A stretch of DNA of 44,795 bases, filler included, from Jimgerdemannia flammicorona (lineage: Eukaryota), in the NCBI GenBank assembly GCA_003990765.1. It is 2 parts of 2 records of this genome, joined end to end, with 100 filler letters (N's around TTAATTAATTAA, not from the genome) between each part and the next. Parts side by side here need not be neighbours in the genome. Positions count along the whole stretch, not along the records: positions 22,450 to 44,795 come from RBNJ01001295.1; 1 more part is not named here. One strand, written 5' to 3'. Under the pieces are notes generated by a model. The model saw only the letters and a list, made by a program, of their open reading frames with translations. It did no database searches and was not told the origin of the DNA. This document shows, one piece after another, positions 13,846 to 44,795 of this stretch (its first letter is position 1; every line of letters begins with the position of its first letter). Position numbers and translations under genes: made by a program.

Positions 13846-13884
<39 letters not shown>

Positions 13885-14690: not shown

Positions 14691-14721
<31 letters not shown>

Positions 14722-18319: not shown

Positions 18320-20002
18320 TCACTCCTTCCAAATAGAGAAAACCTCGTAATCTGCGACTATAAAATGGTGCATACCAGCAAGAGCCGTGTTAGATGCACC
18401 TGTACCAGAATAACTATGTGATAAGCTGCTGTAGGATACATTTGAAGTGTTCGCCAGATTGCCAATGAACATGTCACATCCAGCTCCGAATATAGGCCCG
18501 TAGCTTGTGGAGTTGTGGCTCCCATATATAGTATTGGTGATTGTGAATTTCATTGGTTGTTGTCGATGCAGTCCATCTTTCAAAGCAAACAGAAAGTTGG
18601 TACTGGACTGAACATAGCTGCCATCGCCTGATTGCCAAGGGTTGAAGTTGACACCGCCAAACAGATGTCCGTCGGAACTTTTAACAAGTACGAGTGTGGG
18701 TCCTCGATTGTCACACCTTTGATGGAAAGTAGAGGCTTGGAAGCCATGAACAGAAGCTTGGTATAACTTGTTGAACCGCAAATTTGCCGGCGAATTGCAT
18801 CCAGCTATCCCATTGGCCTCTACAATCCACGTTTTTAAAAGCGCCGATGACTCGTGATTGACAATGTCCGAAGAAAAAGAGCTCTTATCTTTACCCTTAT
18901 CCTTGTTCTTAACCTTGCTCTTTGTCCTCGGGGTCTCAATCGATATGTTGTTCGGCTGAGAGAAGAACCGCTGGATCTCAACAGATCGACGTATTGGTAG
19001 GAAGAATGCAAGAGTTTCGAAAGATTGCGTAAACTGCTCTGGTTCGAAGAGGGTAAAACGGATCACCGGAGTCAGTGGTCTAAGAGCGGCATTTAGCGCC
19101 GTGAGCTGCTGAGCTGAAATGAGCGGTTGATCAATCCCCCCTCCGTCCGCATCGGAAGCTACATTGCTTGACGCTGTCTTCGAATGTGTGTCTTCGTCGA
19201 TTTCGCTGGCAATATTCATCTTCACCTGTGATTCGACCATAGGTTTCAAGACCTTGGTGTGGTGACACGCCCAGTTGAAAGCCAAATTCCAGACTTCAGA
19301 TTCGGCTAAGGGGAGCTTGTCGGAGGTGAGGATCTGCTTGAAAAGTTTGGGAGGAATTTCGTCGAAGAATGTGGCGAGCATGATGCTAGACTCTAGGATG
19401 GTCTCAATATGAGCAACAGTGAAGTCAAAGAGTTCTTGAAAGAGTTTGGGAAGAGTGTGTTGATGTGCGAGGATTAATCCAGGGATGAGAAATGTACTGA
19501 CTGCGAGGTTGAAGGGAAGGTGCTCAGGCATTCTACTCTCGTCGTCATCGTCTTTATTTGAGGCAACCTGTTTCAGCAACTCCATTACGTTGGCTTGACA
19601 TACAACACTCAGTTCGGCTAGTTCCATCTCTTCGGCAGCAGCGATCAGATCGAGAAGAATTGTCTTGTTGTTGACCTCGACACTACCGGTGTAAATGTAG
19701 CGCAGGATTGCGTGGAATGCGACGTGAGAAATGTTGGGCTTATGAATTATGCCGCTGGTCTTCTCCTTCCAGTCGTTGCTGAACAATGTATCAAAGTATT
19801 TGGAGCGACAGCGAAGAATCGGCGAATGGCCGTACATCGTAACTGGTTCAGCGCTTTTGCGTATCTCGTCGTCCTTCTTGGTGTCGGCTCCGCCTACTAA
19901 AAACCGAACGTCGCTTCCGCTGGGGTTGTTGACGAGTATGGCCATGTCTTGAGAAAGTTTGATGGCACCAGAGGCGGAGGAACGAGACTGGGTCTTTGGC
20001 AT
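18320..20002 (-). CDS. BTB/POZ-BACK-TLDc domain protein, copy B (560 aa, intronless)
   Basis: ATG at 20002 is equivalent to the copy A start; colinear without indels; about 53 amino-acid differences counted by eye (about 90% identity). Confidence 0.95.
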   Translation of the reverse strand: MPKTQSRSSASGAIKLSQDMAILVNNPSGSDVRFLVGGADTKKDDEIRKSAEPVTMYGHSPILRCRSKYFDTLFSNDWKEKTSGIIHKPNISHVAFHAILRYIYTGSVEVNNKTILLDLIAAAEEMELAELSVVCQANVMELLKQVASNKDDDDESRMPEHLPFNLAVSTFLIPGLILAHQHTLPKLFQELFDFTVAHIETILESSIMLATFFDEIPPKLFKQILTSDKLPLAESEVWNLAFNWACHHTKVLKPMVESQVKMNIASEIDEDTHSKTASSNVASDADGGGIDQPLISAQQLTALNAALRPLTPVIRFTLFEPEQFTQSFETLAFFLPIRRSVEIQRFFSQPNNISIETPRTKSKVKNKDKGKDKSSFSSDIVNHESSALLKTWIVEANGIAGCNSPANLRFNKLYQASVHGFQASTFHQRCDNRGPTLVLVKSSDGHLFGGVNFNPWQSGDGSYVQSSTNFLFALKDGLHRQQPMKFTITNTIYGSHNSTSYGPIFGAGCDMFIGNLANTSNVSYSSLSHSYSGTGASNTALAGMHHFIVADYEVFSIWKE

Positions 20003-20525
20003 GTTGATAGTGGGGATGTTGGTGTGACGGAGAGGGTATATGAAATATAGTGGAGAAATTTTTCGCTTTGGACTTTTATAATATGAAATTTGTGGCCTCG
20101 ACCTCATGAGTGACTTCTGACTTTATCTCCGAAATTGCGGCGCGTGGACAGGAGCAAGAGGTCCCATGAAATCGGGCCGAAGAACATGTGACACCATCCG
20201 AAATTGTCGCATGTAGGGGTTTTTTTTTTAATATAACTCAGAAATTGGTCATGTGTTGAATATTTCCAGGAACCTGGAAACTATATACATCGCCGCATCG
20301 TGCCCATCCCGAATGAAGCGAACAAATGAGGCGATTTTAAAATGTTACCTCTGGTGGCTTAGTATGACTCAAAAACAGGTGGTCATCTCAAATGTCTTGC
20401 TTGGTGGGGGTGATATGATTGTGTATGATGCATGGCGTGGGAAAATCCTGATCACATGATTTCCAAGAAAACCTTTCCTTTTTGAAGATAAAACAAAACT
20501 CGCTTTCACCATAGGCAACCGAATT

Positions 20526-20684
20526 ACGACATCGGACTCTTGGAAGGTATTGCACACTCCTCTTTCCATTGGTTCATTTCCGCACAATCTTTCATCTCAC
20601 ATCAGTGTTCTTTCTCAGCTGAATCTCCCAGAGCTGCGCGCCGAGGTCGCGGTAGCACAGGCTATTGTCGGCAAAGTCATGAAG
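20526..20684 (+). pseudogene. Truncated duplicate of the DUF4246 gene 5' end
   Basis: Reverse complement of 10296-10443: ACG where the other copy has ATG, same intron, LNLPELRAEVAVAQAIVGKVMK, then homology stops. Confidence 0.8.
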
Positions 20685-21315
20685 GAGCGGGAATCAGTGT
20701 GAGATGTTGGAATTCAGAATGACAATAGCGAGATAGCTGACGAGGCACGTCATGACAAAAACCTCCTCTACCAATCTATTATTCGGTGACTATGCTAAAG
20801 TAGTAATGTAGTAGCCATGATACTGTGAATAGTTTACTTTGACCGGGCCTTTGTGAACGTGACAGGGGCGGAGGCGGAGGTCGACGTGGAATTTGAGTAG
20901 AGCGGCGCTTAGTTCTAATATATATATACGTAGCGGCCCAGTTACGAAAAGAGATGCGGCACGTGGAGTATCGAGGATAAATTTGTTATGAATAGCGATC
21001 AGGAATTTCAGACTGGAGATGATTTTTGAATAGTACCCTTCAAACCGTGGTATGTTTATCTTAGAGTTGTCGGAAGAAATGAATCTTGAAGGAAATAATA
21101 TGTCTAATATATTGGTAACCCATCAGAATACAATTTCAAAGCCAGGCTGGTTTGCAATTTCGAATCACTTGCAGGCGTAACATTGAAATAAAAATATAGC
21201 ATAGACCGAAACTAAACGTTGGAGGCTACTTCAACCGCCATCCTTTGTCCCCAGCATTTGGGGTGGGTCTGATCAAACACAATCCTTCCGGAGCCTTACA
21301 TTGTAACTTCCCTTC

Positions 21316-22349: not shown

Positions 22350-22449
22350 NNNNNNNNNNNNNNNNNNNNNNNNNNNNNNNNNNNNNNNNNNNNTTAATTA
22401 ATTAANNNNNNNNNNNNNNNNNNNNNNNNNNNNNNNNNNNNNNNNNNNN
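22350..22449. other. Assembly gap linker (44 N + TTAATTAATTAA + 44 N)
   Basis: Exactly 100 bp with a six-frame stop spacer, flanked by poly-A contig ends. Confidence 0.97.
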
Positions 22450-22754
22450 AAAAAAAAAAAAAAAAAAAAAACAATCCTTTATTGGCTATAATTTATATTT
22501 TTTTCCACTTGTCTGTACAGTAATAAACACCCAGATTTTATTGATAGTATTAAGAATATTATTTGGAAAATCAGAACAGTTGAGTTATAGATATATTCTC
22601 TATTTATTTATCATTTTTCTTACCCAAGTAACTATACTTGCCAGTCCCAAACTAAGCCTCAAATTTCTACACTAAATTGCTAAGAATATAGATAGAAAAT
22701 TATAATATATAAACTACTAGTAAATATAAACTGAAGTTTTTTTTTTTTATATAT

Positions 22755-24130
22755 ACTCCAAAAACTAAAGCTCTCTCTACTTACTCTAGTAATACTAGAG
22801 AAAGTCTAAAGAGATATAAGAATATAAGTGAGAGTCAATCCAGTGATGAAAATTAATAACTGTACTAATCTCTCTTCTTTAGTAATAAAAATCAATAACC
22901 ACACTAATCTCTCTTCTCCAAACTACTCTAAAAATGAAAGCTCTCTCTACTTACTCTGACAATATTAGAGAGAGTCTAAAGAAATATAAGAATGTAAGTA
23001 AGAGTCAATTTAGTGATAAAAATTAATAATCATACCAACTTCTCTTCTTTAGTAACAAAAATTGATAATTATTTCTCTAGTGATAAAAATCAATAACTGC
23101 ACCTAGTGCTCCCAATGAATCGAATTGAATTGAATTTGGCCCAAACTCAATTCGATTCAATCAAATCAAGGGTCCAATTCAATTCAATTCGAATTGAATC
23201 AAAGGTCCAATTCAATTTGAAGTTCAATTTGAACCTTAATTTTCAAAATGTAATAACTCGACGAAAACTCATCCAAATTTAACATATTTTAGCTTGTTAG
23301 ATTCACCGTATTAATGTGATTCTAACAAGCTAAAGTACGTTAGATTTAGATGAGTTTATGCTGAGTTATTACATTTTGAAAATTAGGGTTTAAATCAGAC
23401 CCTCAATTTGATTCAACTTTTTATTTGATTCGAATTGATTCAAATTAAAAAATCCCCAATTTGATTCGACTCGTTTAACCCTCAATTTGATTCGATTCGA
23501 ATTGATTCAACTCATTTGGGAGCACTAATTGCACCAACCTATCTTCTCTAGTAACAAAAATTGATAACTGTACTAACCTCTCTTCTTTAGTGATAAAAAT
23601 TAATAACTATATTAATCTCTCTTCTCTAGTGATAAAAATCAATAACTGTACCAACCTTTCTTCTCCAAACTACTCCAAAAACTGAAGCTCTCTCTACTTA
23701 CTCTAACAATACTAGAGAAAGTCTAAAGAAATATGAGAATATAAGTAAGAGTTAATTTAGTGATAAAAATTAATAACTATATCAATCTCTCTTCTCTAGT
23801 AATAAAAATCAATAACTATACCAACCTCTCTTCTCTAGTGATAAAAATCAATAACTGTATCAACCTTTCTTCTCTAGTGACAAAAATCAATAACTGTACC
23901 AATCTTTCTTCTCCAGAGATAAAAATTGATAACTATACCAACCTTTTTTCTCTAGTGACAAAAATTGATAACTGTACTAATCTTTCTACTTTAGTAACAA
24001 AATCAATAATTATACCAATCTTCTTTCTCTCTCTTCTTCAGTGATGAAAATCAATCTCTCTTCTATAGTGACAAAAATCAAAGACTATACTAAAAACTAA
24101 ATATAAGAAAGTATAAGTAAGAGTCAACCT
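22755..24130. repeat. Decayed higher-order tandem array: ~90-bp units interspersed with runs of a 39-bp unit (GTGATAAAAATCAATAACTGTACCAACCTCTCTTCTCTA)
   Basis: ~90-bp unit (TACTCCAAAAACTGAAGCTCTCTCTACTTACTC..GAGTCAAT) at about 22755, 22924 and 23671, partial near 24085; more than 10 copies of the 39-mer differing mostly by C/T and G/A. Confidence 0.85.
23104..23527. mobile_element. hAT-superfamily MITE (foldback) with 8-bp TSD
   Basis: TIRs TAGTGCTCCCAA(A)TGA; TSD ACTGCACC (23096-23103) / ATTGCACC (23528-23535); interrupts one 39-bp unit; no coding capacity. Confidence 0.92.
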
Positions 24131-24975
24131 TAGATAGCTCTCTGAAAATGAACTCTATGTATAACAACTATGCTCTCACTTGTAACATAATAAAGCTCTT
24201 ATCTATAATGTGATAAAGTCTTTATCTATAATATAATAAAGTTCCCCTCTATAACAAAGACTGTACTCTATCCTTCTGTTATTTCTCTATTATATATATA
24301 TCTTTATAATGAGAAAGTGGATTTATTCTACTAAACCAATCTAATATAAAAAGAAAAAAGAGAGATATCATACTATCAGAATAGTTAAAAAGAAAGAAGA
24401 TATCAATAGTTTGAAAAAAATATATTACCCTTCACCAGTTAGTTCTAAAAAAAGCTTACTAAAATAATACAAAAGAAAATAATCAGACTATTAAGACTTA
24501 TATAGAGTTAATAAAAAAACTATAAGAGAAACTTCATATACTTTTATTTAAAATAATTAATCTGCTCCTGATTCATCTTTATCTATTGTAATTATTACAA
24601 CTGAAATTATCATAGATTATATATCTTTACCTCTAGATAGAATATTTTCTTACAGATTAAAGTATGAGAAAAAGAAGTATTATTTAAGAGATATTTTACA
24701 ATATGTTATAGATACTTGATTAGCTAATCTTTCTCTATCTCAATAATTATAAATAGCTTTTAGCTAGTTTATAATATAGACAAAAGTAATTTATATAGCC
24801 TAAGATAGATTAGTAACAAAGGCCAGTCACTATGATAGTAGTCTTAAATATTGAAATACTATATTTTATGGTCTTAAATCAGAGACCAGTTACTAAAATA
24901 TTAATTTTAAATTAATTATAGGCCAAAAATCTATAGTAATTATATAACTATTTATATGATAGTATAATAGAATAC

Positions 24976-27206
24976 CAGAGGTAGAAAAAACCCAATTATT
25001 TGTTTTTAGAAAATTGTGTTTAAGGTTTATACTCAATAATATCTCAAAAAACCTAAAAAAAACTTAAGGTTTTATTATAAATGGCTGCTCAGTCAATATT
25101 ATCTTTACTATTTATATTATTACTATTATTTTTTGAGTCTAATTAAAACTTATTATTAACTTTATAAAGTAAGCACTTAGTAAATATTAGATAATTCTGC
25201 TTGATAAAGATAAGCTTCTTGATCTTATTAGCTAATAAATAATTTTATAGCTTTGAATAAATAAATCCAAAGATAGAGAAATTTTATTCTAAAGTTATAC
25301 TTAATATTACTAATATGAAGAGCTTAATAGTGATCTTCTGCAGCTATAACTACTTGATACTATCTGATAGCTAATATTAGAGTAGTATCTTATGCTTATT
25401 ACTCAGCATCTTAAATTGAAAAATATTGGCTTACTTTTTCTAATAAGCAGTAATGATATATTAGATAAACTATATATATAATACTTTTTACTAAATATTA
25501 TCAACTGGTATATTATTGTTAGTAAAAATTTTGATAAGAATGTTCTTGAGTTCAATATAGTTCTCTTGTAAAAACCTTTTACCAATAAAGTGAGGATCCA
25601 GTAAGAATACTAACCTATGAACTTTATTATATATAAACTGAAATCAGTAAGTAGCAGATATATATAGATATTAAACCTCATTTTCTATTATAACTTCTTC
25701 TTTATAAAGCTTATTGAATATGATAGGTAACTGATAAAAATCAGACAGAACTTCAGTGATTAGACAGAAGTCCAATTAATTCTTGATAATAAGAGTAATA
25801 ATAGGCTATAAGATTTTGAGGCTCTTCTTTAACAAATACTCAAAATTGCTTATAGTGATAATATCTTTAATTCTCATTTACTCTATCTTTTGAACTATAT
25901 TATCAGTAATAAAATCTCATTTAGTTACAATTTTAAAAAGAACTGATTCTGATTTAAGAATAGTCTTGGAGTATTTCTGTAATAAGTCTCAATATATTAA
26001 AGTAGACTTTACTGATATAGAAAGATTCTCAAGCTTTTATTTCTCAATTAGCTTAGTTTTTATAATATGATGATTGTAAAAAAACTTGACAATATCTTTA
26101 GTGTCAAATATAAATTATAATAGATACTTGAATGAATATTTATCTAAATAGCTAGTCTCTATTTCTCTTGAATTTTTAGTTTTGCTTATTGTAAAGATAT
26201 TCTTAACTAGCAAATAAAGACTATGTAATATACAGTCTTAGAAAGATGATAATGAAAATCTGACTATAAGTATCTTCTATGTTTTTTTGTTCATAGCTAT
26301 ATTATTAGTTATAGTTCTAGTAAATATAATCTTTTTATTATCTGATATCACTTATTCAATATTCTGTATAATCTATTCAGTAGTGTATCTCTACTGCTGA
26401 GTTATAATAAACTCAAGAATTGGACTTAAGATTGATATAATTATTATATAGTTAATAATAAACTTATTTCAGATATTAAATTATAAATCTGATATAAGAT
26501 AGATAGTTGAAGAGTTATTTAAGAAAAACTTATTACACTTGGCTTTAATATTATCATAACACTTATTTAACAATATATTACTAAGTTTCTTAAATCAGAG
26601 AGTAGATCACTATCTAGTCATAGGACTTTTATGAGTGTACAAAGATTCTTCTCTTTAATATACTAAAAAGATGTCCCTATCATATAGTAGTATATAGCAA
26701 GATGTTTCTGGAACTTCTTTTTAGTCATTCTGTCAATTTTGGACAACATGAAGCTTATAATTAAGGCCTGGTCTTTACTAGATAATGATACAGCTTTTGA
26801 TAAATTATTACTCAATATCTTTGACTTCTTCTAATAACTGATATATCATCCAGAGTACTTGCTGGTGTCTTTGCCATTCATGAGTTTCATAAATTGGACA
26901 GTGGTTGTTCAGATGATACATAGCACTTTTGCTTTTCTTGTAGTGGTTTATAACCTGCTTACAGTACTTACACTGGGCCAACTTGAGTTTGTATGGCTTG
27001 GCTGCCATTGTAAAGTACATCCAAATATCACTGGCCATATGTCCTCACTTGTTTTCACTTTGGCCAGTATGATCAGCTAGGTTTGATCATTAATGATGTT
27101 GTCCATTAGTTGTCTTCACAATCTGGTAATAATGAGTGCATGTCTATTTCCGAGTCCACTATTTGGGGCGCAATTTTGCAAAAAAAACCTTGTCTCCCCA
27201 CCCCTG
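24976..27206 (-). mobile_element. Full-length but hypermutated hAT DNA transposon (BED zinc finger + DUF659-type transposase core)
   Basis: TIR CAGGGGTGGGGAGA at 27206 vs CAGAGGTAGAAAAA at 24976 (5 G>A); TSD TAGAATAC (24968-75) / CAGAATAC (27207-14); BED finger SDIWMYF..AQCKYCKQ..MYHLNNHC (27038-26898); decayed core KKKFQKHLAIYYY, SDL*FNI*NKFIINY and F*DCILHSLYLLVKNIF (CxxH motif). Confidence 0.92.
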
Positions 27207-27277
27207 CAGAATACCGAATATTTGACTGCCGTTTGGTTGTTACACCACGAAAATATTCCAACACTCCAACGTTCGAA

Positions 27278-29343
27278 ATGTTCACCACCGTCCAGATACC
27301 ACCCTTTGGTACACTTCGCGGCAACGTGACAACCACCGGCGTGCGCCAATTCTTGAACATTCCCTACGCCAGGATCCCAAAGCGCTGGAGGGCTCCCGAA
27401 AAGCTCACCGCCGCAGACGCCTGGCAGGGGGAGCGTGATGCAACGCGATTCGGGTTCGTATGGGTCTTTTTTCCACCATATCAGTATGCCGAGAACCGGA
27501 TAATGCTAGAGATTACCATACACCCTTCTTGTAATAGTCCGCAATGTCCCCAACCTCCAGGCCTCCTGATCGCCGGTCCCTACGCTAGCAATCCCGACTC
27601 CAACGAAATGAACTGTCTCAATCTCAATATCTACGCCCCCGAGCGCAAGAATGCCGAAGCAAACAGGTTGTTCCCAGTGATGGTGTGGATTCATGGCGGA
27701 TCTTTCAAAGATGGTACCGCAAATTGCAGCCTTTACGGTGAGTGAAGTGAGATTTGTCCATCTTCGCCCAACGACGATGTGCCTCATAACGTATGTTGCT
27801 TTGTGCACATCTTCACAAGTTAGATTCTACCAACTTCATTGAGCACGCGCTTTCCGTCTCCCGCCCCGTCGTCGTCGTCACCGTCAATTATCGCCTGAAC
27901 GTTTTCGGGTTCATGGGGTCGCGCGACATCGAAGACGAAATGCGCAAGGATCCTAGCGTCAAAGCCGATGAGACATCCATCGGGAATTGGGGGCTCTTGG
28001 ATCAGAAAATCGCATTTGAATGGGTGAGTGCTCTTTCTGTTTCCAGTGTTGCCCTTCGGAAAGGATGGATATGAGAACGCTTGACTTTGATTGTAACTTC
28101 CGTCAGTATGTCAGGTCAAGGACAACATCAATCAATTTGGCGGCGATCCTGACCAAATCACCGCCTTCGGTGAAAGTGCCGGTGGCGGTACGTCCCATCT
28201 ATTCATTTATTCTACACTCCTTACCCTGCTAACTCCCCACCATCTCTCCCCGCCAGCTTCGCTCCATTATCACCTCATCAACCCGGCCCATCACGGCCTC
28301 TTCCGGCGTGTAATCATGCAATCTGGAGTGGCTTCAATAGCCGCCGCGCAGCCACTGGCCGTTCATCATATGAAGTTTGACGCACTTTGTTCCCACTTCG
28401 GCATCCCCGCTACGGCCGAAGACCGCGTCCAGAGGCTACGCGACGTGCCGAGTGACCAAATTATTTCTGCATTGGCAGAGTTCAGATTCAGCCCCACAAT
28501 CGATGGGGTGGTTGTACCTGCTGATGTGAGGGTCCTGTGGAGGCAGGAGGGCGCGTGGGATCCAAAGGTCGAAGCTGTGATGATTGGGGATACAAAAGAT
28601 GAGGTTTGCGTTGCGAATGTGTTTGCGACTTTGTCGGTGCTCGTGCTAGATAAACTCTACTTGAATTATATTATGCTCTTCTCATATAGTCGTTTTATTT
28701 TATTTTATTTTATTTTTTTTCACTTGTCCATTGAATCTCACCCCATCACAATCCAGGGTACCGTCCTCTCCGTAAGGTTCCAATTAACGACTCTCCCACG
28801 CGTCATGGCTATGGTAGACTTCCTTGTTCCCGCCTCCCTTCAGCCGCGCTTCCGTATCCTGTACTCCACCCCCACGACAGACGCAGAAGCGAAGCAGTTG
28901 ATGGATCACCTCTTCTATGATGCCATCTTCCACTCCCCTATGCGCAACCTGCTCGCGCATCTTTCTGCCACACGTCCGGGCCTCGAACTGCATTATTACC
29001 ACTTCCGACACGCGCTCGATGCGACCGCCGCGTTGGGGCTAGGTGTTCACCACCAGATTGAGCTTCCGTTCTTGTTCCTCCGACGCGATTCACTCACCGA
29101 GAAGGAGCTCCGAGTCGCTGAGAGAATGGTGGAGTGTTGGGTCAGATTTGCCTACGGCGAAGGAACCGGGTTTGAGCCATTCAGGGAGGTACTGAGGGAA
29201 AGGCGATTGTGTTTGGCGAGGATGGGGAGGTTCGACTCGAGAGGGAGGTGCCGAGGGAAGAGAATGAGAAGGCTGTGTTTTGGGCGGATGTGGAGAAGGA
29301 GAGCGCGAGGATTGCGGGAGAGGCCGCGAAAGCCAAGATCTGA
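27278..29343 (+). CDS. Type-B carboxylesterase/lipase (alpha/beta hydrolase), 6 exons, apparent 1-nt frameshift near 29185
   Basis: Exons 27278-27453, 27538-27737, 27824-28023, 28115-28187, 28257-28603 and 28757-end, all GT-AG. Motifs FLNIPYA, NCLNLNIY, PVMVWIHGGSF, VTVNYRL, GNWGLLDQ, nucleophile FGESAG, GDTKDEG, GVHHQIEL. Confidence 0.92.
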
Positions 29344-30711
29344 AACGGACTTATGAACGGTGAACGCCTTGACGCATATAACTTTTCGTTACGAATAATG
29401 GAAAATAACACAGAATCCGGATATTTAGTACCGAAATAACAGCTATTACTATAAACATCTGTAGCATAGCCGAGAGACGAGAGCGGCATTATTGCTTGCT
29501 AATATCATACATCGAACGAGCCATTATCCAAAGCGCTAACTGGTATCAAGTTGTACGAATAATAGTGGGGACACTTAGAGGTCATCAATGTGCTTGCTGG
29601 AACAGCCCAACCGGAACCTCTTTAGAAAGGCAGTAACATGAATGACGCATACACCGAACTTTGTAAAATAGTAGTTCCGCTTCAGGTATTGTAGGAAAGG
29701 TTGGTCAATCTTTACAAGTGAGAATATATTTATTGGCAATGTTCGAAAGATTTTATATTATAATTATATTTTCAAATTCGACTAGAATGGAATTATCTTA
29801 TGCCGTTTTATTTTTTAAAATAAATAAAAGTAGAGATAATTAAATTCGTTATTTTATTTTACTAGCAGTAGAATTAAAATATTGCAATCTAGTTATATAT
29901 GAGTGTATTGTAGAACATATCGAGAGTCCTAACCGTGGTTAATACAGATTATCCTGTAGCACAGAGCCAGTATGTCAATAGTGATTTATTCGAGCGATTC
30001 TTTACAATACAACGAGAAGACCGAAGCAGGCGTAGGTCTGATGGAATAATGGGTGGTTCTGCTTAAGTCACGCATGAAAGGTGCACAATACTCAGATCCA
30101 TCTGAAACTGTTACCCTCCGATTTTATGCGTATTAGAGAGTATACCCAGGAGGGTTACTGCTATATATAAAGTAAAAGAAGGCTATACTAAATACTAAAA
30201 TTATCAATAAACTGATTGATAGTATATCAGGGATAAAATTTTATCAATAATTATTTTACTTAAAAGAATTATAACTTTAGAAATAATTATACAGATTTAG
30301 TCAAATAAATATTGTTTAAAAGCTCTAGACTTCTTTTGTTATTTATTTAAATATAGATTTGATAGCATTCATATTTAAGCTGAATAGGTTGAAATTTAAA
30401 AATAATAAAACATTGGTAAGGTTTATATTACACATATTGTCTGATATGTATTTCGTTTTGACGAGGCGTTCATTTTTTTTTATATATTTGACGAGGCGTT
30501 CAATGAAAACTGAGGTTATAGCGGGTATTGATTTTGAAAATTGTTTTAACGGCTCTAAACCTGATTTTGTCACGGCGATTAAATCATTCACTAGCTGATA
30601 CGATGAAAGCGGGATTGAAAGCCAGACCCCAATGTCACGTGATTTCAAGTTCCGCCACACCTCCACTTTAAAATCAGGCAGAAAGTACCTTTTTAAAAGT
30701 GGCCGTCTCAA

Positions 30712-32329
30712 ATGTCGTTCATAGATCCCAACTGCGACCATATAACTTCTATTCCCTGTCTCGCAACCCCTCCTTCCTACCACGAATTTCTACACAACTA
30801 CCTTATCCCCAACGTTCCCGTCCTGATTGGCCCGGCCCTCACAACCGGATGGCGCGCACGATGCGACTGGGTGCGTCCTAATCCTGACTGTCATGGAGAG
30901 GAGGCTATCTCCGAGAAGATACCGCGGTTTGTGCCAGATTTTGCGTTCCTGATGGATAGATTTGGTGATGCCCCGGTGCAGGTCGCTGATTGTCGCCGGA
31001 GGGAGTTTACGGATCAACCAAGAGTTGGGATGATGTTCGCCGATTTTGTGGAGAAGTGGGGGACGTCGGTGGTTGAGAGTGAAGGCGAGATGAAAAACGA
31101 TCAAGTTCGCGATATTGAGGCCAAGTGGGAGCATGACAGCGACCGGACCCGATACTACCTGAAAGACTGGCACTTTGTCAAGGCCTTCCCGGAATACGGC
31201 GCGTACGAGACCCCGGACATCTTTCGTGGTATGGCGCCGCTTCCATATTTACATCTCTCTTGTTTTTACACTACCGAACTCGCTAACAATGTCACTCCTC
31301 GCTTCCCCGATGCGCTTTCACATCAAAAAGTACAGACGACTGGATGAACGAATTTTGGCACACCCGCAACGACGTCCGCGACGACTACCGCTTCGTCTAC
31401 ATGGGCGGCCATGGTACTTTCACTCCATTCCACGCCGACGTCTATAGGTATCGATCTCGCTATCTTCTTCTTGAATCTTTCGTCTATTTTTACTTCTCAC
31501 ATGCCAGCTACCTGCTACCTATTGTATGCAGATCCTACTCCTGGTCTGCCAATATTTGCGGCATTAAGCGCTGGACGTTATTCCACCCCGGGCAAGAGCA
31601 CTTATTCAAGGACAAACTCGGAAATATGGTTTACGATGTGCGCGACGTCGACCCAGCGCGGTTCTCGCGGTTCGCCGAGGCAAGAAGGATCGTATTGCTG
31701 CAGAGGGACGGAGAAACGCTGTTCGTGCCCTCGGGATGGTTCCATCAGGTACTTTACGAATTAATCACATCCTCTACACGTGTGTCCTTTGGCCTAGTAT
31801 TTACGTCCTTCTCGTCCTCGCCTCCCACCTACAGGTTGAGAACATCGGCTCGACAATCTCAATCAACCATAACTGGTCCAACGCCTGTAACCTTCCCTAC
31901 CTGCATACTTCCTTCGTCGCCGACCTCGGCGAGGTCCGCTACGCGCTGCGCGATCTTATTGACCTCCTTCCGTCACCGGAGTTCGAACGTGAGTGCCAGC
32001 GCCTGCTTCTGGTCAACTCCGGGTGGGACTGGATCGTGCTGTGGCGTATGTGCGCGTGCATCATGCAGCGACTCAGGCGACAACTTGAAGGGGAAGATGG
32101 GGATAAAGGGACGCCGATGGAATTGCAGCCGCCAGTAGGGTTTCAGGCGAAGAGAATTTTGGACGTCATGATGGGCTTATTGGCGGAGACGGAGGCGGGG
32201 AAGGTGGTGGGGAAGTGGTACGAGGAGGAAGGTGGGATGGAGGTTGGAACGGGGGAAGAGGCAGTGGAGGAGATGGTGAGAGAGTTAAAGGGATTGGTGG
32301 AAGAATGTAAGGGATGGCGCCTTGATTAG
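30712..32329 (+). CDS. JMJD4: JmjC domain 2OG/Fe(II) oxygenase, JMJD4 orthologue-like, 4 exons
   Basis: Exons 30712-31228, 31336-31447, 31532-31748 and 31835-32329 with GT-AG introns. Motifs YYLKDWHF, DDWMNEFW, DDYRFVYMG, TPFHADVYRSYSWSANICGIKRW, FVPSGWFHQVEN, ISINHNW. Confidence 0.92.
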
Positions 32330-35017
32330 AGTGCGTCGGAAGGTTATATGTAGAAAAGATTGCCTTGCGTGCTTAATAATTTGTAGATCTATTTATTAGA
32401 TGAATAGGTTTGCTTGAAATAATCGATTAGATAAAATATTTCCTCCAGTAATCTTTACGGTTTTGAGGGCAAACAAAGGTCGAAAGAAATTAAACTAGGG
32501 GAAGCAAGCGCACTCTCCTTTCGTTGGTCATGATAATGACCTCATTCTTGTCCCCTATTTTCATATGCAAATATAAAGGCCTGCAGAGTTGCGAGAGCAT
32601 TCGGCACAGAATCGTTTGGTTAACGGCGTATTTTATTTAACAGGCATGTAACAATAAAATAAAAATAAAAAAAAACTCAGCCATCTCTGACAGTGGAGGT
32701 GAGTCGATGTCCCCACCTGACACATACATACCGAAACTCCATCCGCCGAATCCACAACGAATATGCACCGAGGCGATGCTGATATTATGTACGACACCTT
32801 TCCTAATGGTGGTTAATTGGTTTCTTGTAAAAAATTCACCTTTCCGTTTTTATTCTGTTCGGGCATCACATCGCATCTTCCGGCCTGGCTTTCCGGTCCC
32901 CTGTATCTTTCAATAAACTATATACTTGCTGCATAAAGCAGATTTTTAAAGCCGAACGGAGATTGGAAAGCGTATTATACGCTTTGGCATCGTAATCACT
33001 ATCGAGTGATAGTCGTAAAATATGCATTATGTTGCAGGCGTTAGTTGACAATGGCCTATTGCACACAGTTGCTCAAAATTATATCTACATTGCTACAGCT
33101 GGATTGTATCCTTCCCAAAATCTTATATGAATTATCCGAAACCGAGTGTTACGGGATGGGATGGAACGATGGTGACTCACAATCCTAATCGCTGGGCTAG
33201 GACAATGATAAAGCTCTACCGACGCAATCGCACAACTACTTGACATTTCCAACGTAATCTGGGCAAACATCGCTATATGTTTGCTTGCATTGTAGGTCGT
33301 AATTAAAGCCATTCGACAATTGATTGGAGAGCAAAGTTTCAGCTAAGAGGATCGATCATGAAATTGTGGGTATGAGTAAAACGGCTCGGATGACATCTGG
33401 AACCACGGTCAGCATATAGCCTAGATTATTACAACTAAACTTGTGGTAAAATCTTCTTATACTACTTGGGGCGGTGCGCATTCTTTCATAATGAGATCTC
33501 GGTCTGTACACTTCCGTCGTTTCCCTGATTTGGTTTTGCGCGTGGGGTGATTGGGTTGGAGTGTAGTTTTAAACAAAAGAAAATCACGGATGTTTGGAAT
33601 ATTCTCCCACAAGCTTTGAATAATGCTAATAAATAATGGTATAAATTTTGTTGATGATAATGATGTAGATTTCCTAGATCACACGTCTGCAATAAATTCA
33701 TACGACTTCCACAATATTTAGAGGTCAGTCAAACAATTGTATACTTTATGTAATTAGCTGTCATGACAAAATGCGCTTCCGCGCATAATAAATGAAAGCT
33801 TCGAATGTCAAAATACTGTTACTACTATTCACATCCGCCTCACACGCAATATACTCTCATACCGATGGTTCCTTTACTAATTTCATTTTCATTTTTGGGC
33901 CACAAGCTATGTAAACACAATATGTGCAAGAAGCTGCCTATTTACAAACCCCATTTGATGCGGAGGCCTACCACAAATGTTCGTATGAACGTTGACTTTA
34001 GACCCAATATTTATTTAGAAGAAAATCTTAGCAACGTTTGAGCGCGCGTTGCCACGTTGATTCCTTGTCAACCCGGATTGGTATATACAGGTTCTGCAAG
34101 CTACCGTAGTCACAACTCCACCAGCGTTACGCTCGATTCAATGTCGCCAAATGTTTATGTCACGTTTCTTCTATATATTACAATAGCTCGGGCTTCTAAG
34201 CACATCCCTTTCCTCTCCATTTCATCAAATTTCAGCGAGTATAACCTTATGTCTTACAATCAGAGTATGACAATGATCCAAAGTTACAATCGCGGACAGG
34301 ACTAGTCCAATCTAATCGAATGATATTATACCTGTGTATGTGTCGAAAGGTGTTTCGTTTTGCGCTCCACGCAACCCCTATCAGACGACTGATGATACAC
34401 ACACCATTGTCAGTCTCAGACGACGATAGAGAACTCGAATTAAAGCAACTGCCGCGTGTCTTTCGAGAAAACGCAATACGATTGAAAACAGGCAACGGCT
34501 ACTACACCCTACAAGCTTGCCCAACTGTACCACAAGCGCGGCGACGCCGAGGAAGCTCGGCAATTCTATATCCTTTGTCTGGAGATGAGGGAAAGGTTGC
34601 TCGAGGGGCGACACCTCGGACGTGGCAGCATGTCTATTCTAACTTGCATTGCTCTACAAATTGACAGGGTTTTACTTGCGGTCGCCTGAGATCAATGAGA
34701 CTTGCTGATCCTCTCACGTTGTTATCCGCCTCTATTTTGGCTAATCTGTGCGAAGAGCGGAGGGAACGGGTGATGGGTGGGGAAACAAAGGGGTCCATAG
34801 CTTTCGGATCCGGAATGAATGGAACTAAAGGCTTGCATATTTTCTCGAGTATTATACATCGATCGATCCGGCCATAAGCTTATAAAATCATTAATGGTAT
34901 AAAATATGTGCTGCCATTTACAACTTGGAACACAATAAAATTAATGATAGATGAACGACAACGCCCAATTCTAAACGTGTTTGTCTCCTAAAATGAAGGT
35001 GAGTGGACGTTGTTCAT

Positions 35018-35737
35018 TAGGTTAGGTCATATGCCGACCTATCACCGATCTTACTCCCTTTAAAATGAACAGGGGGTGAGCGAACACACAGGTCATGAGC
35101 TTGAGTCCATCATGCAGCTGCAGACAATGCATCACACAATTCTGACATACATCCAAGCTTCAGCACGGTCAAGTTCGTGTTCTGCTTCAGAGCCTCGGTT
35201 AAAATGCATGCCACGCCATAGCAAATGTAACTCTCTTTAAAATAAACAGAGGATGACAGATTTCAGCTTGATTCTATCACACAGCCGCACGCGACTCTTC
35301 ACACAGTTTTCACATGCCTTCGAAATTCAGATTGGTTAAAGTCATGTTCTGCCTCAGAGCATCGGCTAGAACGCATGCACTCTCGAAGCTAATGACACTT
35401 CCCTTAAAATTAACCGAGGATGAGCGAACGCACAGATTGTGAGATTGATTCCATCGCACATGTCTGACAAACCTTTGAGATCCCTGGGCCACAACAAACA
35501 CTCAAACTCAGCCCTCCCATCTTTGCTCGCCAATTGCAAGACCTCTCTAGGCTTCCTGATCCAGTTCAACGCATCTTGCGTAGTAACCTTCCGTCAGGAT
35601 CATGATACACCTGCGTCGTGAACGATTCATAGCCATAAGCAGATACGGTAAAATACACGTGCATCGGTCTTTCCCCCCACCAAATTTATCAATGGTCTCG
35701 ATCTTGATATCCGTCAAAAATTTGCCTAACCCCAGAT
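35018..35737 (-). pseudogene. Ribonuclease-inhibitor-type LRR gene remnant (one 28-aa repeat per 84-nt exon), interrupted upstream by the DIRS element
   Basis: Exons 35401-35318 (SVISFESACVLADALRQNMTLTNLNFE) and 35234-35151 (SYICYGVACILTEALKQNTNLTVLKLG); a third starts at 35057 and hits TAA. The first has damaged splice sites (AAGG acceptor, GC donor). Confidence 0.75.
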
Positions 35738-35760
35738 AGACTAAGCTTCGCTTTGTTCCA

Positions 35761-35945
35761 GACTGTGAAGAGTTGGTTTCTGCCATCCTGAAAGTGTTGG
35801 CATGCTTTATTTGTCTTAAACATGGTGTATACATATGAATTTTCATCTGTCTAAGACATATGTATGAGACATTTCATGTAAAACATAGTAATAAAAGAAT
35901 ATCTTAACTCTTATGGAGTTTCTTAGCCATTTTGAAAGCTTGGCA
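35761..35945 (+). repeat. DIRS left inverted terminal repeat
   Basis: Reverse complement of 39803-39974 apart from C>T/G>A changes and two small indels. Confidence 0.93.
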
Positions 35946-38900
35946 GTTTGTCTCTTCTCATGATCCACAGAACCCTTCCTATCACATTACTATGAGCAAT
36001 GAATAACTCCAAAAATAATAACAATAGGCTGCTCTGGCTGAGTATGCTGAGTTCCTTTGACAGGTCATCAAGACTGTCACAGTCAGCCTCTGCCCTCCTC
36101 AGTATGACCAACATATCTTATCAATACTCTTTTCCTTTAGTATTTCAGATGTTCCAATCCTGTAGTCCTTAGACTTAACAGGAATTCTGATAGTATAGAC
36201 CTTCATGATGATGTCAACAGTAGTGATAATGAATTCCTTATAGTAGACAAGTTTTGGATCATTAGGAGATATCATATATCTCTTATATTTACTAATACTA
36301 TTCTACTAGAATATATTGAGATATATCTCATCTCTATCAGTTTTAAGAAACTCCTCTATTAAAACTCTGAACCCAAACAGAGTGTTCTCTATATCTTCTC
36401 TATTGATGAAGCCTTCACTGACAATTTTAACAAATTTACTAAAAAAGCAGACAAGATTCTTACTGATATTTAACAGACAATCTACAATACTCTCTAACCT
36501 ATTACTATTACTCTCCAGGCCCTCAAATGTCACTCAAATGATGCTAATCTCTACTACTACAGATTGGTCTATAATACTGTCATTCTTCTCTTAGTGGAAA
36601 AACTACAAGACTCTCTCCAGATTAGATTCTATAAAGTAGAATATATATATATTTACTATTATATTAAACTTACTAAATCTGCTAAATAGTTATCTGTTCT
36701 CATCTCTGGCTACTATATAGTGGCTTCTGGCTCTGAGTATATGTAATAGTAATCTATTTGGTACTAAATTTATTTATTATTTTTATAATAATACCAAATA
36801 TTGCAAGCACTTCCTTATAGTTAAAAAAATCTTCAAACTATGAGATAATATACTCTTGTCCTATAGCTCTAGTAGTTATAGTCAGGAAAATAGATTCTAG
36901 AGCAGTCACTATCTCAACTATTACAATTTATAATAACAGAGCTCTCAGAACTGCTCTCTAAGTACAAATAGCTGAGAAGGTTTCTAATACTAAGCTCTAA
37001 ATCTAGACAACAGTATTTCAACACTTATTGCTCATCTTTGAAGAACTAATTGATCTATAATATCATTGTCTCCAAGATCTCAAATATTATCTCCAAGGTA
37101 GGAATATAGTTAGCTTAGATTCTTAAGACTATTTGGACAATTCTGAGCATTAACTATTAAGTAATTAATATAGTCCACAGAAAGAACTATATTAAATAGT
37201 TACAAACCCAACTCTCCTCCAGACTGAACTCAGGTTCTTCTACAAGAAAAGTATATTAGTAATAGAGAAGACTCTGTTAAATACTACTATTATCAAGTTC
37301 TAGAACAAGAAGACTATCTACTCTATATAGAACAGAGAGCTGCTTTTCTTTTATAATATCTTTACAATCTTCTAGATTGATAAAAACTATACCTATCTTG
37401 ATACCTATTTGCTGAATAGTTTTATAAGATAATTATAGTTCAAGATAGAAGGTTTCTAGACCCTATATTATAGTCTGGCCTAGTGATTATCTCATCAAGA
37501 TCAACCTATCTTTATATTCTCTTATACTTAAATAATTAATAATTACTTATCTTTTAGTAATAGAAGATTAACTGAAAATTTCATACTATACTATTTGGTC
37601 TATCATCTGCTCTATATATCTAGACAAGATAATAGTATATAATAGTTCTAAAGTCTCTTCAAGCAAGAGATATCTGGCTTATATATTATATTAATAATAT
37701 ATTATATCTTCTGATCTCTATAAGAGATAACAAACTCTAATATAGAAGAATTATTTGTAACTATCTGGAAATATTGGGTTTTTTTCTATATCTAATAAAA
37801 TATATATAAGAGCTTATATAGTAATAGATATTTCTGAGATTTCTGATTAATATTATTAATATAGAACTCTACTTATTCAAGAACAAGATACATATGTAAT
37901 ATTTATAGAGAGACTATACTCTATATGTAAGATAGTATTACTAGTTAGTCTCTATAACTATAATTAGAATAGTCTCATATTCATATCTCTGATATCTCAA
38001 AAGGACTTATATTAGTGATCTCTTGAGCCTTTTAGCTAAAATAGCTAGTTTCTACTTACTGAATACTCTGAGATCATAGTTAATATAAATGTTAGTAACT
38101 TAGATTAGGACTTTGAAATTACTACTTCTATATCTACCAACTAGATTATATAGCAAGTGATAGATACTTGGGCTCCTATAGAATAATACTACTCTAGTAA
38201 CTACCATAAACTCAAGATAGTTCTATTCACACTTCAGATCAATAACTGCTATTAGAAGAACTATATAGTTTTTATTCAGATAGACAATATGACTATGAGG
38301 GCTTTCATCAATAAGCAAGAGAGCTCTCTCTTTTATCTAAATGAGATTGCTACTAAGATATATTATATCTACTTAATAAAGAGGATATATCTCTTTGCCA
38401 AATATATCTTTAGAATAGAAAATATTTATACTGATTTTTTGAACTATATCTATTCTAGTCCAGATGAGTGATAGCTCAACCCAATACTTTTTGACATTTC
38501 CTCCATTAGAGTCCTATCTGTCTAGATCTCTTTATATTATAGATAATAATCCAGACTCTCTACTTTTATAACTAATAGACAGATCTCAATATTCTAGATA
38601 CTGATACTTTCTAACATTAATAGCTAATATTTAGTATATATACAAATATACTATAGACCCTTCTCAACTATATACTATACAAGATTAAGGTAGATAGATA
38701 TGCTTATCTTATTCTTATCATACTATTTTAGAAATAATAGAGCTAGTGGTCCAAACTTCTGAAAATAGTAACTGCTTTTCTCATTCTTCTTTCTTATTAT
38801 CTCCTGATAATAGAAAAGATAATATTATAGATAATATACTAAAAAAACTCTAGTATAGCAGATTAGTAGTAATTTTCAGATACTCTATGACTCTATTAAG

Positions 38901-39572
38901 TAATAAATTTTGCAGTAAGAAAATACACACTCTTCCTACTCTATATATATTCTGATAAATAGTAAGCAATTTTGAAAAATATAAGATAACTATTAGTTTT
39001 TACAATAGTATCAATGATTGGTCTACCAAAATGGTCCTAACTACCAATATGATAAAGGAATATATTTCTGATATTATCACTAAGGTCTCTCATTCCATTC
39101 TAGTCCTCTTGGAGGATAAGACAATATATCCTATATACTGAGTCTTCTGCTAGATGAGTGAGATAGAATCTCTCTGCCTACAGACCAATTGTGACTGCCT
39201 ATTCATCAGTATATATATACTTACTTTATCACAATCTTATCTGATCATCTTTGAAATTAGTTTTTCAAATATATGACAGCTGCAGACATTGATCCAGTTT
39301 ATTGCCCTCACTCTGCTCAGGCTGAATCCTCTACTGAGGCTCTGAAAGAGAGCACATTCATTGATAAAGTCCTTAAGAGTAGTAATTAGAGCTTCAAAAC
39401 TATATTTGAATATCACTATCATTTACTCTATTGGATGCTAGTCCTTTTACAATCTGCTTGGGCCACTTCTCTCATCTACATAATCCTCAAGTATAAGGGC
39501 AAAGCTAAGGCTGACATGACTCTGGCCAGATGCTCTACTCATATTAGATCTAAAACAACCAACCCTGAAATG

Positions 39573-39677
39573 GTCTGGAACAAAGAGATGCTTAGTCCTG
39601 GATGGATGAGGTGCCATAGGCACTGAAGTCTGTCCCAGACTTTGTGAGCTTTGGGAGGACCATAAAGAGTTGGTTTC
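39573..39677 (+). repeat. DIRS internal complementary region (ICR)
   Basis: 39573-39597 is complementary to the left terminus (35739-35763); about 39596-39677 is complementary to the right terminus (39955-40035). Confidence 0.92.
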
Positions 39678-39802
39678 CCACCTATTCCCTGATCCTTTCT
39701 GATTTTTCTAGATATATTTCTCTCTTTCTGATTTCTTCAGCTGCACTTTGCCAGCCAGTTTTTTTTTTCCTTTTTTCCCTCTTCAGGTATTCCTGGCTCA
39801 CA

Positions 39803-39974
39803 TGCCAAGCTTTCTGGGCTAAGGGACTCCGTGGGAGTCGAGATGTTCTTTTATTACTATGTTTTACATGAAATGTCTCATACATATGTCTTAGACAGAT
39901 GAAAATTCGCCATGTTTAAGACAAATAAAGCACGCCAACACTTTCAGGATGGCAGAAACCAACTCTTCACGGTC
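39803..39974 (-). repeat. DIRS right inverted terminal repeat, followed by a right extension to 40035
   Basis: Reverse complement of 35761-35945; retains its CpGs. Confidence 0.93.
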
Positions 39975-40732
39975 CTCCCAAAGCTCGCAAAGTCTGGGAC
40001 AGACTTCGGCGCTACGGCGCCTCGTCCATCCGGGAATATCCACGTTCTGTACGTGCAACGACCAAAGGTTATTTACTTTGCAGAAAATTTCTTTGCGCAA
40101 ATATTAGTAACAATAGATTCTACCTTTGGCGTTCGTGATACATTGGTCGAACTGCCAGACGTCCGCCACAGCTGCTGGGATTGGCGTGCACGCCGTCCAC
40201 TACTCAGATAGAGAGAATCGGTGAGGTAACGATAGGGCCGTCATATAGACGGCGGAGGCGGAACGGAACAAAAAGCTACAATTGGTGGGTTGTATGAAGG
40301 AAGAAATATTGTAGGTAATGCTGACTCTATTGTTGTGTGCAGTATGAAGTTCAAAGTTACCTTATACAACAGTCCTTCCATCTCGGCCTGAGGATGATAC
40401 CCCCGCGAATAATTCCAGAGCAAAGGGATTTCTGCCGTGAGAATGTGGAAAAGTGCATTTCGATGACGCGATAAATTCACAACGCGTATTGGTTGACTCA
40501 CCGAACGTAAAAACGTTCAAGACTAAGCGACACCCAGTCAGCACGATCACAAAAAAAAAAAATTGAATTGTGTCCATTGTTGGTTGGTTGCGTGTTCTGT
40601 AGGCTTCGGACGTCTTTTAAATCCCCGTGAGGTGTCGAAAACACAGGGGAGTTTGTGTGGAACCTAGTCTCTTCCGAAGATGGGTATCGAGGAAACCATA
40701 CTGTAATAGGAAATACCAGTGTCGATGTCCGA

Positions 40733-44726: not shown

Positions 44727-44795
<69 letters not shown>

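Follow-up and report, generated by a model that had tools for sequence, protein, structure and literature searches.

A 44,795-nucleotide (nt) stretch of DNA assembled from the fungus Jimgerdemannia flammicorona, here called the window, contains a degraded hAT DNA transposon, an apparent DIRS retroelement, a satellite-like repeat block and a smaller transposon fragment, all of them AT-rich and poor in CpG. The question raised by this locus is what removed their cytosines: repeat-induced point mutation (RIP) of the ascomycete kind, loss of methylated CpG, or some other process. A preliminary description of this DNA had proposed C>T hypermutation that is confined to transposons, spares CpT and ignores a linked gene duplication, and had called it a RIP-like genome defence. 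We find that the mutation is real, directional, restricted to the transposons and well beyond what loss of CpG would produce. Its product is indeed like that of RIP, but there was no sign of homology sensing. The evidence comes from four transposon patches in one window.

Transposon Patches in the Window

The patches and their parts, with coordinates in the window, are as follows.

6000..6900: left-contig fragment of a transposon, AT-rich and poor in CpG, GC content 0.29
22450..24975: mutated repeat block, transposon class not assigned, with 39-nt tandem arrays at 22837-23105 and 23536-24093
24976..27206, coding on the minus strand: degraded hAT DNA transposon with terminal inverted repeats (TIRs) and an 8-bp target site duplication (TSD)
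24968..24975: left TSD of the hAT element, TAGAATAC, with a C>T change, at a CpA, relative to the right copy
27207..27214: right TSD of the hAT element, CAGAATAC
35739..40035: whole DIRS element, its inverted terminal repeats (ITRs) 86% alike over 185 nt by self-BLAST
35739..35945, plus strand: left ITR of the DIRS element, mutated copy
35946..39572, plus strand: DIRS interior with a degraded pol gene in frame +3
39573..39677, plus strand: DIRS internal complementary region (ICR), of which 39573-39597 pairs with the left terminus and 39598-39677 with the right terminus
39803..40035, minus strand: right ITR of the DIRS element, essentially unmutated

The two elements were classified from their sequence features. 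One is a hAT transposon by its short TIRs, 8-bp TSD and BED finger, together with a sub-threshold dimerisation domain; in the stop-masked minus frame, Pfam gave zf-BED at E=3.8e-4 (20.9 bits, cut-off 20.6) and the hAT dimerisation domain at E=0.025 (14.8 bits, below the cut-off of 21.4). The combination of ITRs with an internal region complementary to both termini points to a DIRS element, at the ends of which no TSD was found. Its frame +3 carries an FGLSSA-type motif followed by a YxDD-type motif that now reads YINN (37687-37698), and the sole trace of a recombinase is a motif that now reads HSAQ (39309-39320). There were no Pfam matches in six stop-masked frames, and none at E<=1 for the reverse transcriptase (RT) stretch searched alone. 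A phmmer search of the RT stretch against 1.84 billion representatives gave five weak matches; the best, protein P0014 (E=4.8e-9), carries RVT_1 and a Dam-like methylase domain, the domain arrangement of DIRS elements.

The block at 22450-24975 also holds a higher-order repeat of 170 nt and, at 23121-23498, a nested palindromic element. It gave no Pfam protein signal in six stop-masked frames, the lone match (UPF0425_C, in one of the six) being non-significant at E=0.38 and 11 bits, with a cut-off of 27. By self-BLAST, 6346-6541 in the patch at 6000-6900 is ~70% alike to 23185-23376.

Loss of G+C and CpG from the Patches

The GC content was 0.259 in the block at 22450-24975, 0.262 in the hAT element and 0.296 in the DIRS interior, with values of 0.44-0.46 elsewhere. 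Observed and expected CpG counts were 0 and 77.1 in the DIRS interior (35946-39569, 3624 nt), 2 and 38.3 in the hAT element, 12 and 40.7 in the block, and 2 and 18.6 in the patch at 6000-6900, so that the four patches together retained 16 CpGs where 174.7 were expected. Of the cytosines outside CpG, about one third have likewise gone from these relics through C>T change. As the preliminary description had stated, in the block, hAT and DIRS the C that survives is mostly in CpT (54-58%) and the G mostly in ApG (47-56%). The observed/expected ratio (o/e) of CpT/ApG was 1.43-1.66 in the block, the hAT element and the DIRS interior and 1.21 in the patch at 6000-6900, and 0.78-0.95 in non-transposon DNA.

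The low CpG of the patches is not simply the look of non-coding DNA here, because a spacer at 29500-30690, with a GC content of 0.326, yet had a CpG o/e of 1.12 (CpT/ApG 0.95), and the introns of a neighbouring carboxylesterase gene also keep their CpG (o/e 0.87); spacers, introns and genes together gave 0.87-1.16. The right ITR of the DIRS element had a GC content of 0.472 and a CpG o/e of 0.93, with 12 CpGs kept.

The usual cut-offs for RIP are a TpA/ApT ratio above 0.89 and a substrate index, (CpA+TpG)/(ApC+GpT), below 1.03. TpA/ApT was 1.10-1.13 in the block, the hAT element and the DIRS interior, and 1.03 in the patch at 6000-6900. The substrate index was 0.92 in the block, 1.03 in the DIRS interior, 1.09 in the hAT element and 1.22 in the patch at 6000-6900; CpG>TpG changes replenish it. 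The composite index, i.e., the first ratio minus the second, was +0.10 in the DIRS interior and +0.18 in the block.

The palindromic element within the block (~380 nt, with TTCGAA-type motifs) retains all 12 of the block's CpGs, and it looks like a younger insertion. Its relative at 6346-6541 has lost its CpGs, and the pair could serve to date the process.

Direction and Timing of Change

Pairs of repeats within single elements reveal the direction of change. The left and right DIRS ITRs, compared over 172 aligned columns, differed by 12 transitions and one transversion; T or A was in the left copy in 12 of 12 transitions, and all five CpGs had been lost there. Ten of the changes could be classified by context, and were at CpG (five), CpC (three) and CpA (two), with none at 20 CpT sites. 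Between the ICR and the right end of the element (84 columns) there were nine transitions and one transversion, with all nine transitions in the ICR, where eight of eight CpGs plus one CpA had been lost. Pooled over these 256 columns, all 21 transitions were one-sided (binomial, 9.5e-7), with a transition:transversion ratio of 21:2. These figures agree with the earlier counts of about 11 one-directional changes in the ITR, none at CpT, and about nine in the ICR that erased every CpG. In the hAT element, five G>A changes in the left TIR relative to the right, also reported previously, were seen when the TIRs were read by eye. The claim that both TSD pairs differ by a single C/T holds for the hAT element and lapses for the DIRS element, at which no TSD was found.

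Comparisons with other copies gave the same polarity. An expressed, less mutated copy of 501 nt, aligned on 24377-24737, had 48 differences from the window; the 16 of these that were listed comprised 14 with A/T in the window and G/C in the contig, one transition in the opposite direction, and one transversion. When the DIRS RT was aligned with P0014 (135 residues, 88 mismatched), 49 mismatches could be explained by C>T/G>A alone, versus three by the reverse; for the other four matches the corresponding ratios were 18:3, 29:6, 30:3 and 24:5. Conserved codons were hit in the same manner, as the preliminary description had noted, and besides the YINN and HSAQ motifs there were three changes of tryptophan to stop.

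Changes inferred on the plus strand of the RT comprised 31 C>T and 27 G>A, and both DNA strands have therefore been mutated. At least part of the mutation occurred in place, after insertion, since within one inserted copy the two ends are not the same (the TSD and TIR of the hAT element, and the repeats of the DIRS element). The DIRS interior has lost about one third of its G+C, while the ITR and ICR repeats show only two transversions in 256 columns.

Sequence Context of Change

Pooling the polarised pairs (the DIRS ITR and ICR, the hAT TIR and TSD, and the transcript copy), the sites changed were 13 of 25 CpG, 13 of 45 CpA, 9 of 40 CpC and 4 of 44 CpT. CpT was changed less often than CpA and CpC combined (Fisher p=0.036) or CpA alone (p=0.029), and 26 of the 39 inferred events were outside CpG; the transcript copy had 14 non-CpG transitions in 86 nt. 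When 13 units of the 39-nt repeat were compared with a consensus that restores C and G, the counts were 56/78 for CpG, 32/52 for CpA, 18/52 for CpC and 8/60 for CpT, with 14 non-transition changes. Combining pairs and repeat gave 69/103, 45/97, 27/92 and 12/104, respectively. The order is thus CpG > CpA >= CpC > CpT. The earlier statement that CpT is spared stands as a rate about 3- to 10-fold lower, and fails as an absolute rule: there is no full exemption, and one of the four changed CpT sites in the polarised pairs lies in the hAT TIR. In two older pairs (the arms of the palindrome, and 6346-6541 with 23185-23376) CpT had changed as often as other non-CpG sites, and there were many transversions.

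Forward simulation starting from host DNA showed that loss at CpG only reaches a floor at a GC content of 0.40-0.44, versus the 0.26-0.30 observed. Uniform and Neurospora-like spectra fitted poorly (root mean square deviation, rms, 0.018-0.042). In the best fits (rms 0.003-0.021) CpA and CpC changed at 0.1-0.5 of the CpG rate; the CpT rate was 0 in the DIRS element and, in the hAT element, 0.03-0.1 of that at CpG. Relative to CpA, CpT lay at 0-0.3 in the best-fitting simulations.

At non-CpG sites the effect of the 3' neighbour (chi2 25.7) was larger than that of the 5' neighbour (chi2 9.4). Rates by 5' neighbour were 0.19 for A, 0.35 for C, 0.40 for G and 0.20 for T, with no TC-type preference. 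Trinucleotide frequencies in transposon relative to non-transposon DNA were 0.06 for TCG, 0.03 for ACG and 0.00 for both CCG and GCG, ratios that are confounded by flow between contexts and from which no 5' or CHG/CHH preference can be derived; TCG was the best-surviving CpG trinucleotide in the patches (18 of 28 NCG, both strands counted). In the lightly mutated parts (the left ITR, the ICR and the patch at 6000-6900) the changes were mostly at CpG, and CpA/TpG was raised to 1.29-1.36.

Borders of the Mutated Zone

Loss of CpG stops inside the elements, ~50-100 nt short of the hAT element's right end, ~25-60 nt past the left end of the DIRS element and ~235 nt before its right end, and non-CpG loss fades earlier than CpG loss. 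RNA contigs lie on both spared ends: one, from the adjoining esterase gene, starts at 27103, and others lie on 39473-40035. The gene in question is:

27103..29474, plus strand: carboxylesterase gene, expressed and unmutated, adjoining the hAT element; spliced RNA contig with GT..AG joints, Pfam COesterase

That only one terminal repeat of the DIRS element has been spared fits a chromatin border better than it fits homology sensing. In three runs, contigs covered nothing or next to nothing of the hAT interior and of most of the DIRS interior, and a 26-nt stretch of the DIRS ITR had no matches in metagenome contigs.

The esterase contig begins within the last 104 nt of the hAT element (27103-27206), which also hold its only two CpGs, and the end of the transposon therefore forms the 5' end of the mRNA. 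Contigs on 39473-40035 (the ICR and right ITR) reached a depth of 159.7 in X2, and may derive from other copies of the family. X1 and X2 are two runs of one coded organism; that they are RNA is our guess, and their contigs carry GT..AG joints.

Duplicated Host Sequences Were Not Mutated

The left contig carries an inverted duplication of ~3.5 kb with an intact open reading frame (ORF) in each copy.

10293..13854, plus strand: duplication copy A, with a BTB+TLDc ORF at 11368-13140 (Pfam TLD 8.8e-25, BTB 1.5e-12)
17614..20688, minus strand: duplication copy B, with a BTB+BACK+TLDc ORF at 18320-20122 (Pfam)

The copies are 87.6% identical over 2617 nt by self-BLAST, and encode 590 and 600 amino acids. 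As previously described, both have kept their CpGs (o/e 0.99 in copy A and 0.94 in copy B). Across 2458 gap-free columns of the core there were 122 transitions and 44 transversions (ratio 2.8), with T/A on one side in 57 cases and on the other in 61, and all four C contexts had changed at 8-14%. The raw divergence of the duplication (6.8%) is close to that of the DIRS repeats (7.6%); the spectra are wholly different. The BTB-TLDc duplication has thus undergone ordinary, unpolarised divergence. It had been called linked to the mutated elements: an artificial linker separates its contig from the one with the hAT and DIRS elements, so that this part of the claim needs qualifying, but its own contig carries the mutated patch at 6000-6900, only 3.4 kb away.

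A second control is the region at 34777-35737, a module that is repeated within the window and matched by very many RNA contigs at 80-95% likeness, and that has a CpG o/e of 0.87. Because the duplication is unpolarised and this multi-copy expressed region keeps its CpGs, homology is insufficient to trigger mutation.

The module lies on the minus strand, with repeats every 177 and 344 nt and many contig joints that go back on themselves; the summed depths of RNA contigs in the bin 34777-35363 were 6473 and 8616. The DIRS element directly abuts it, and an open frame at 35547-35873 extends into the left ITR. The stretch 34700-35737 looked by eye like RNI-type leucine-rich repeats; we rejected this reading, the frames being broken and Pfam giving no leucine-rich repeat match.

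Nature of the Mutational Process

The C>T process failed the tests for canonical RIP, for decay at CpG only, and for editing by a deaminase. We regard as probable, though with moderate confidence at best, that it represents heterochromatin-targeted methylation of cytosine in CG and non-CG contexts followed by conversion of C to T, and not homology-triggered RIP. Relics of transposons would lie in heterochromatin with their cytosines methylated in both kinds of context, most likely by DIM-2-class methyltransferases, and methylated C would become T either spontaneously or with the assistance of an enzyme. The pattern observed is one of change to double-stranded DNA, in place and affecting both strands, at a rate set by the 3' neighbour and fading over the final 50-250 nt of an element on reaching transcribed DNA; it is limited to transposons and blind to duplication, as methylation-linked C>T conversion in heterochromatin would predict. 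The target of the process would be transposon or chromatin status rather than pairwise homology of DNA, and the two-copy duplication and the multi-copy expressed family would therefore be left alone. Between the two mechanisms offered in the preliminary description, dense non-CpG methylation with deamination, targeted to heterochromatin, fits best. The enzyme family is recorded for this species: RID is reported from Pezizomycotina only, and DIM-2-like homologues from Endogonales and Glomeromycota (PMC9963178), in whose Dataset S1 (part 234) J. flammicorona has three proteins of the DIM2 class, bearing BAH and C5-methylase domains.

The closest parallel is the Dim2 system of the ascomycete Zymoseptoria tritici. 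As reported in PMC8016269, Dim2 in that species prefers CG and CA and not CT, and >95% of the mutations arising during mitosis lie in regions of 5-methylcytosine (5mC) and are C>T, with CA mutated and CG spared. Shared with the present case are a strong preference for CA over CT and confinement to transposon regions independently of duplication; the likeness may extend to a DIM-2-class enzyme that needs neither a sexual cycle nor the sensing of duplications. Unlike in Z. tritici, where CG is methylated yet unmutated, CpG is lost here (13 of 13 in the ITR and ICR, and none left in the 3624 nt of the DIRS interior), CpC changes about as often as CpA, and the host is a mucoromycote, in which both methylation and the role of the enzyme are inferred.

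Several points weigh against our explanation. The mutator linked to Dim2 in Z. tritici spares CpG, the context most affected here, and a second activity, or plain deamination of 5mC at CpG, must therefore be added. CpC is affected about as much as CpA, which corresponds to no described preference of DIM-2 or DNMT3. The enzyme link is based on one paper's table, and the DNMT1 rows of the same dataset (PMC9963178, Dataset S1 parts 229-232) list Endogone sp. and not J. flammicorona, so that any enzyme maintaining CG methylation would be putative. Among our own results, the counts from the polarised pairs are small, the cells of the 39-nt repeat comparison are mutually dependent, and the simulation fits presuppose that the ancestral elements resembled host DNA in composition. 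Finally, two transversions in 256 columns, set against the loss of about a third of G+C, imply a speed that suits a burst-like mutator equally well or better than passive decay, and a burst-like rival of the RIP type therefore stays alive. A stronger version of the idea is that a RID-independent, DIM-2-class-driven C>T mutator in Endogonales actively destroys heterochromatic transposons at CpG, CpA and CpC, sparing CpT and duplicated genes; we put this forward only tentatively. On our analysis, a DIM-2-class agent would fit the targeting and the preference for CA over CT well and the loss of CpG poorly, and would leave the CpC rate unexplained.

How probable, then, are the alternatives? A true RIP-like process would be a burst mutator that senses repeats, perhaps in a sexual phase and perhaps with DIM-2-class enzymes, for which the two-copy BTB-TLDc pair would be below threshold in copy number, length or identity. 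The patches do resemble the products of RIP in Neurospora crassa and other Pezizomycotina, with dense, polarised C:G>T:A change on both strands of repeats, sharp-bordered AT-rich islands, raised TpA/ApT, a positive composite index in the DIRS interior and the block, and stop codons that kill transposon genes; the mutated zone is confined within repeated sequence, and the load is heavy against the background (all 77 expected CpGs gone from the DIRS interior). A RID-independent, DIM-2-dependent route of RIP has, moreover, reportedly been found in Neurospora by Gladyshev and Kleckner in 2017. Canonical RIP, however, mutates duplications above a few hundred bp, linked ones most of all, whereas here a duplication of 2.6-3.5 kb, identical at its origin, shows no polarity, the multi-copy expressed region retains its CpGs, CpG rather than CpA is the top target, and the right ITR and right terminus of the DIRS element were spared despite being part of that repeated element. 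Canonical RIP also needs RID, which is reported in Pezizomycotina only (PMC9963178), and the species is labelled 'no_rip' in a kingdom-wide screen (see below), a weak test in this repeat-rich genome. We therefore consider a RIP-like process unlikely, though a serious contender. Ordinary decay of methylated CpG, acting on transposons that were AT-rich from the start or subject to AT-biased drift in old, unconstrained DNA, would require no special non-CpG process. Transposon-specific loss of CpG is ordinary knowledge, being familiar from Basidiomycota, Rhizophagus and animals, with genes protected and an address based on chromatin, and in Rhizophagus, a relative, transposons have been documented as CG-methylated (PMC8647823). 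CpG is indeed the most depleted dinucleotide everywhere in the patches, and the lightly mutated parts change mostly at CpG, with CpA/TpG raised as decay would predict. It does not account for the two thirds of events that lie outside CpG, the drop in GC of 15-20 points, below the floor reached by simulation of CpG loss alone, or the codon polarity of 49 to 3 in the RT; the right ITR of the same element has a GC content of 0.47, and neighbouring unconstrained spacers keep CpG and show no excess of CpT. This makes CpG decay without a further process improbable.

Dense, polarised C>T/G>A change might also be produced by a cytidine deaminase of the AID/APOBEC kind, acting on single-stranded transposon DNA or the cDNA of a retroelement. 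Such an enzyme seems to us very improbable as the agent, because the two strands of the RT are about equally changed, the load is as great in a DNA transposon and a satellite-like block as in the retroelement, the differences between the ends of a single inserted copy arose after insertion, and a 3' effect is stronger than any 5' effect, with no TC-type preference. Lastly, the AT-rich stretches might be misassembled foreign DNA: Endogonales host endobacteria related to Mollicutes (PMC7928374), which are AT-rich, and there is an artificial contig joint in the window. However, the hAT and DIRS elements lie inside one contig, between fungal genes, the first with a TSD and TIRs and the second with ITRs and an ICR complementary to both termini, and there is a remnant of a eukaryotic RT; RNA and soil-metagenome contigs also bridge parts of the block at 22450-24975. 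An artefact of this kind is scarcely credible.

Comparison with Other Fungi

RIP and RIP-like hypermutation are usually regarded as a trait of the Dikarya, and largely of ascomycetes. The source of this DNA lies elsewhere, as the preliminary description had supposed: outside a read-through intron, the esterase exons match a protein named in NCBI/UniRef as from J. flammicorona at 308 of 308 aligned residues, which identifies the organism by sequence as J. flammicorona or a near-identical relative, a member of the Endogonales (Mucoromycotina, Mucoromycota). The genome is given as 240 Mb with >77% repeats in PMC10386755, and across sources the figures range over 231-240 Mb and 73-77%.

Two reports of related signatures outside Ascomycota differ from the present case. 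TpCpG hypermutation in Pucciniomycotina (PMC3318451) is likewise a RIP-like signature in fungi for which that report gives no RID homologue, but here there was no preference for TCG, which survives best, and non-CpG sites were heavily changed. Zoophthora radicans (Entomophthorales), like Jimgerdemannia, diverged early among fungi and has a huge genome rich in repeats; its windows positive for a composite RIP index lie outside Dikarya, and would also suit a RIP-like process. As presented in PMC11105155, this was an index in 1-kb windows, without direction, context or a gene-duplication control.

Screens have been negative for Mucoromycota. According to a passage of PMC8647823 that cites Venice 2020, no signature of RIP had been detected among Mucoromycotina. 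A kingdom-wide k-mer screen from 2025 reports RIP signatures in four ascomycete classes only, and its table gives J. flammicorona 23 AT-rich k-mers enriched in non-coding DNA (TATA, 4.0-fold), none further in repeats, and the label 'no_rip', with 13 k-mers for Endogone sp. and 0-5 in the other Mucoromycota rows shown (PMC12543289). Because 73% of the assembly is repeats, a contrast between repeats and non-coding DNA has little power in this species. Our literature search found no description of transposon hypermutation in Endogonales; the genome paper (Chang 2019), Venice 2020 and Bewick 2019 were outside its scope and may mention the signature.

If a DIM-2-class mutator does operate here, RIP-type mutagenic defence, or its enzymatic core, would be older than the Dikarya, and the verdict of 'no RIP' published for Mucoromycota would be a false negative of the test comparing repeats with non-coding DNA. 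The pattern in this window makes the time of origin of methylation-linked mutagenesis of transposons, a long-standing question, and its need for RID or homology sensing directly testable. Repeat annotation, and the dating of transposons by Kimura distance, would be badly biased in such genomes.

Other Features of the Window

Between the two contigs lies a stretch of artificial sequence.

22350..22449: artificial contig linker, N44, TTAATTAATTAA, N44, with N runs at 22350-22393 and 22406-22449

A poly(A) run forms the contig end on either side of it, so that assembly probably broke off here in a homopolymer. Spacers carry long poly(A)/poly(T) tracts, 26-60 nt each, at 2005-2035, 13846-13905, 14693-14725, 22313-22349 and 44729-44795, two of them at contig ends.

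Host genes in the window are the BTB+TLDc pair, the carboxylesterase gene, a JmjC/cupin gene, an NmrA-like gene and a DUF4246 fragment. Homologues of the BTB-TLDc ORF were found at 39-57% identity, and a search with the NmrA ORF gave no match. X1 and X2 contained contigs in which the esterase and JmjC genes are spliced at GT..AG joints, and some identical pieces occurred in a soil metagenome. The esterase introns at 28187-28255 (69 nt) and 28602-28754 (153 nt) are stop-free multiples of three, and a 419-amino-acid ORF reads through them. Immediately upstream of duplication copy A is the DUF4246 fragment (9829-10131, minus strand, E=7.3e-9).

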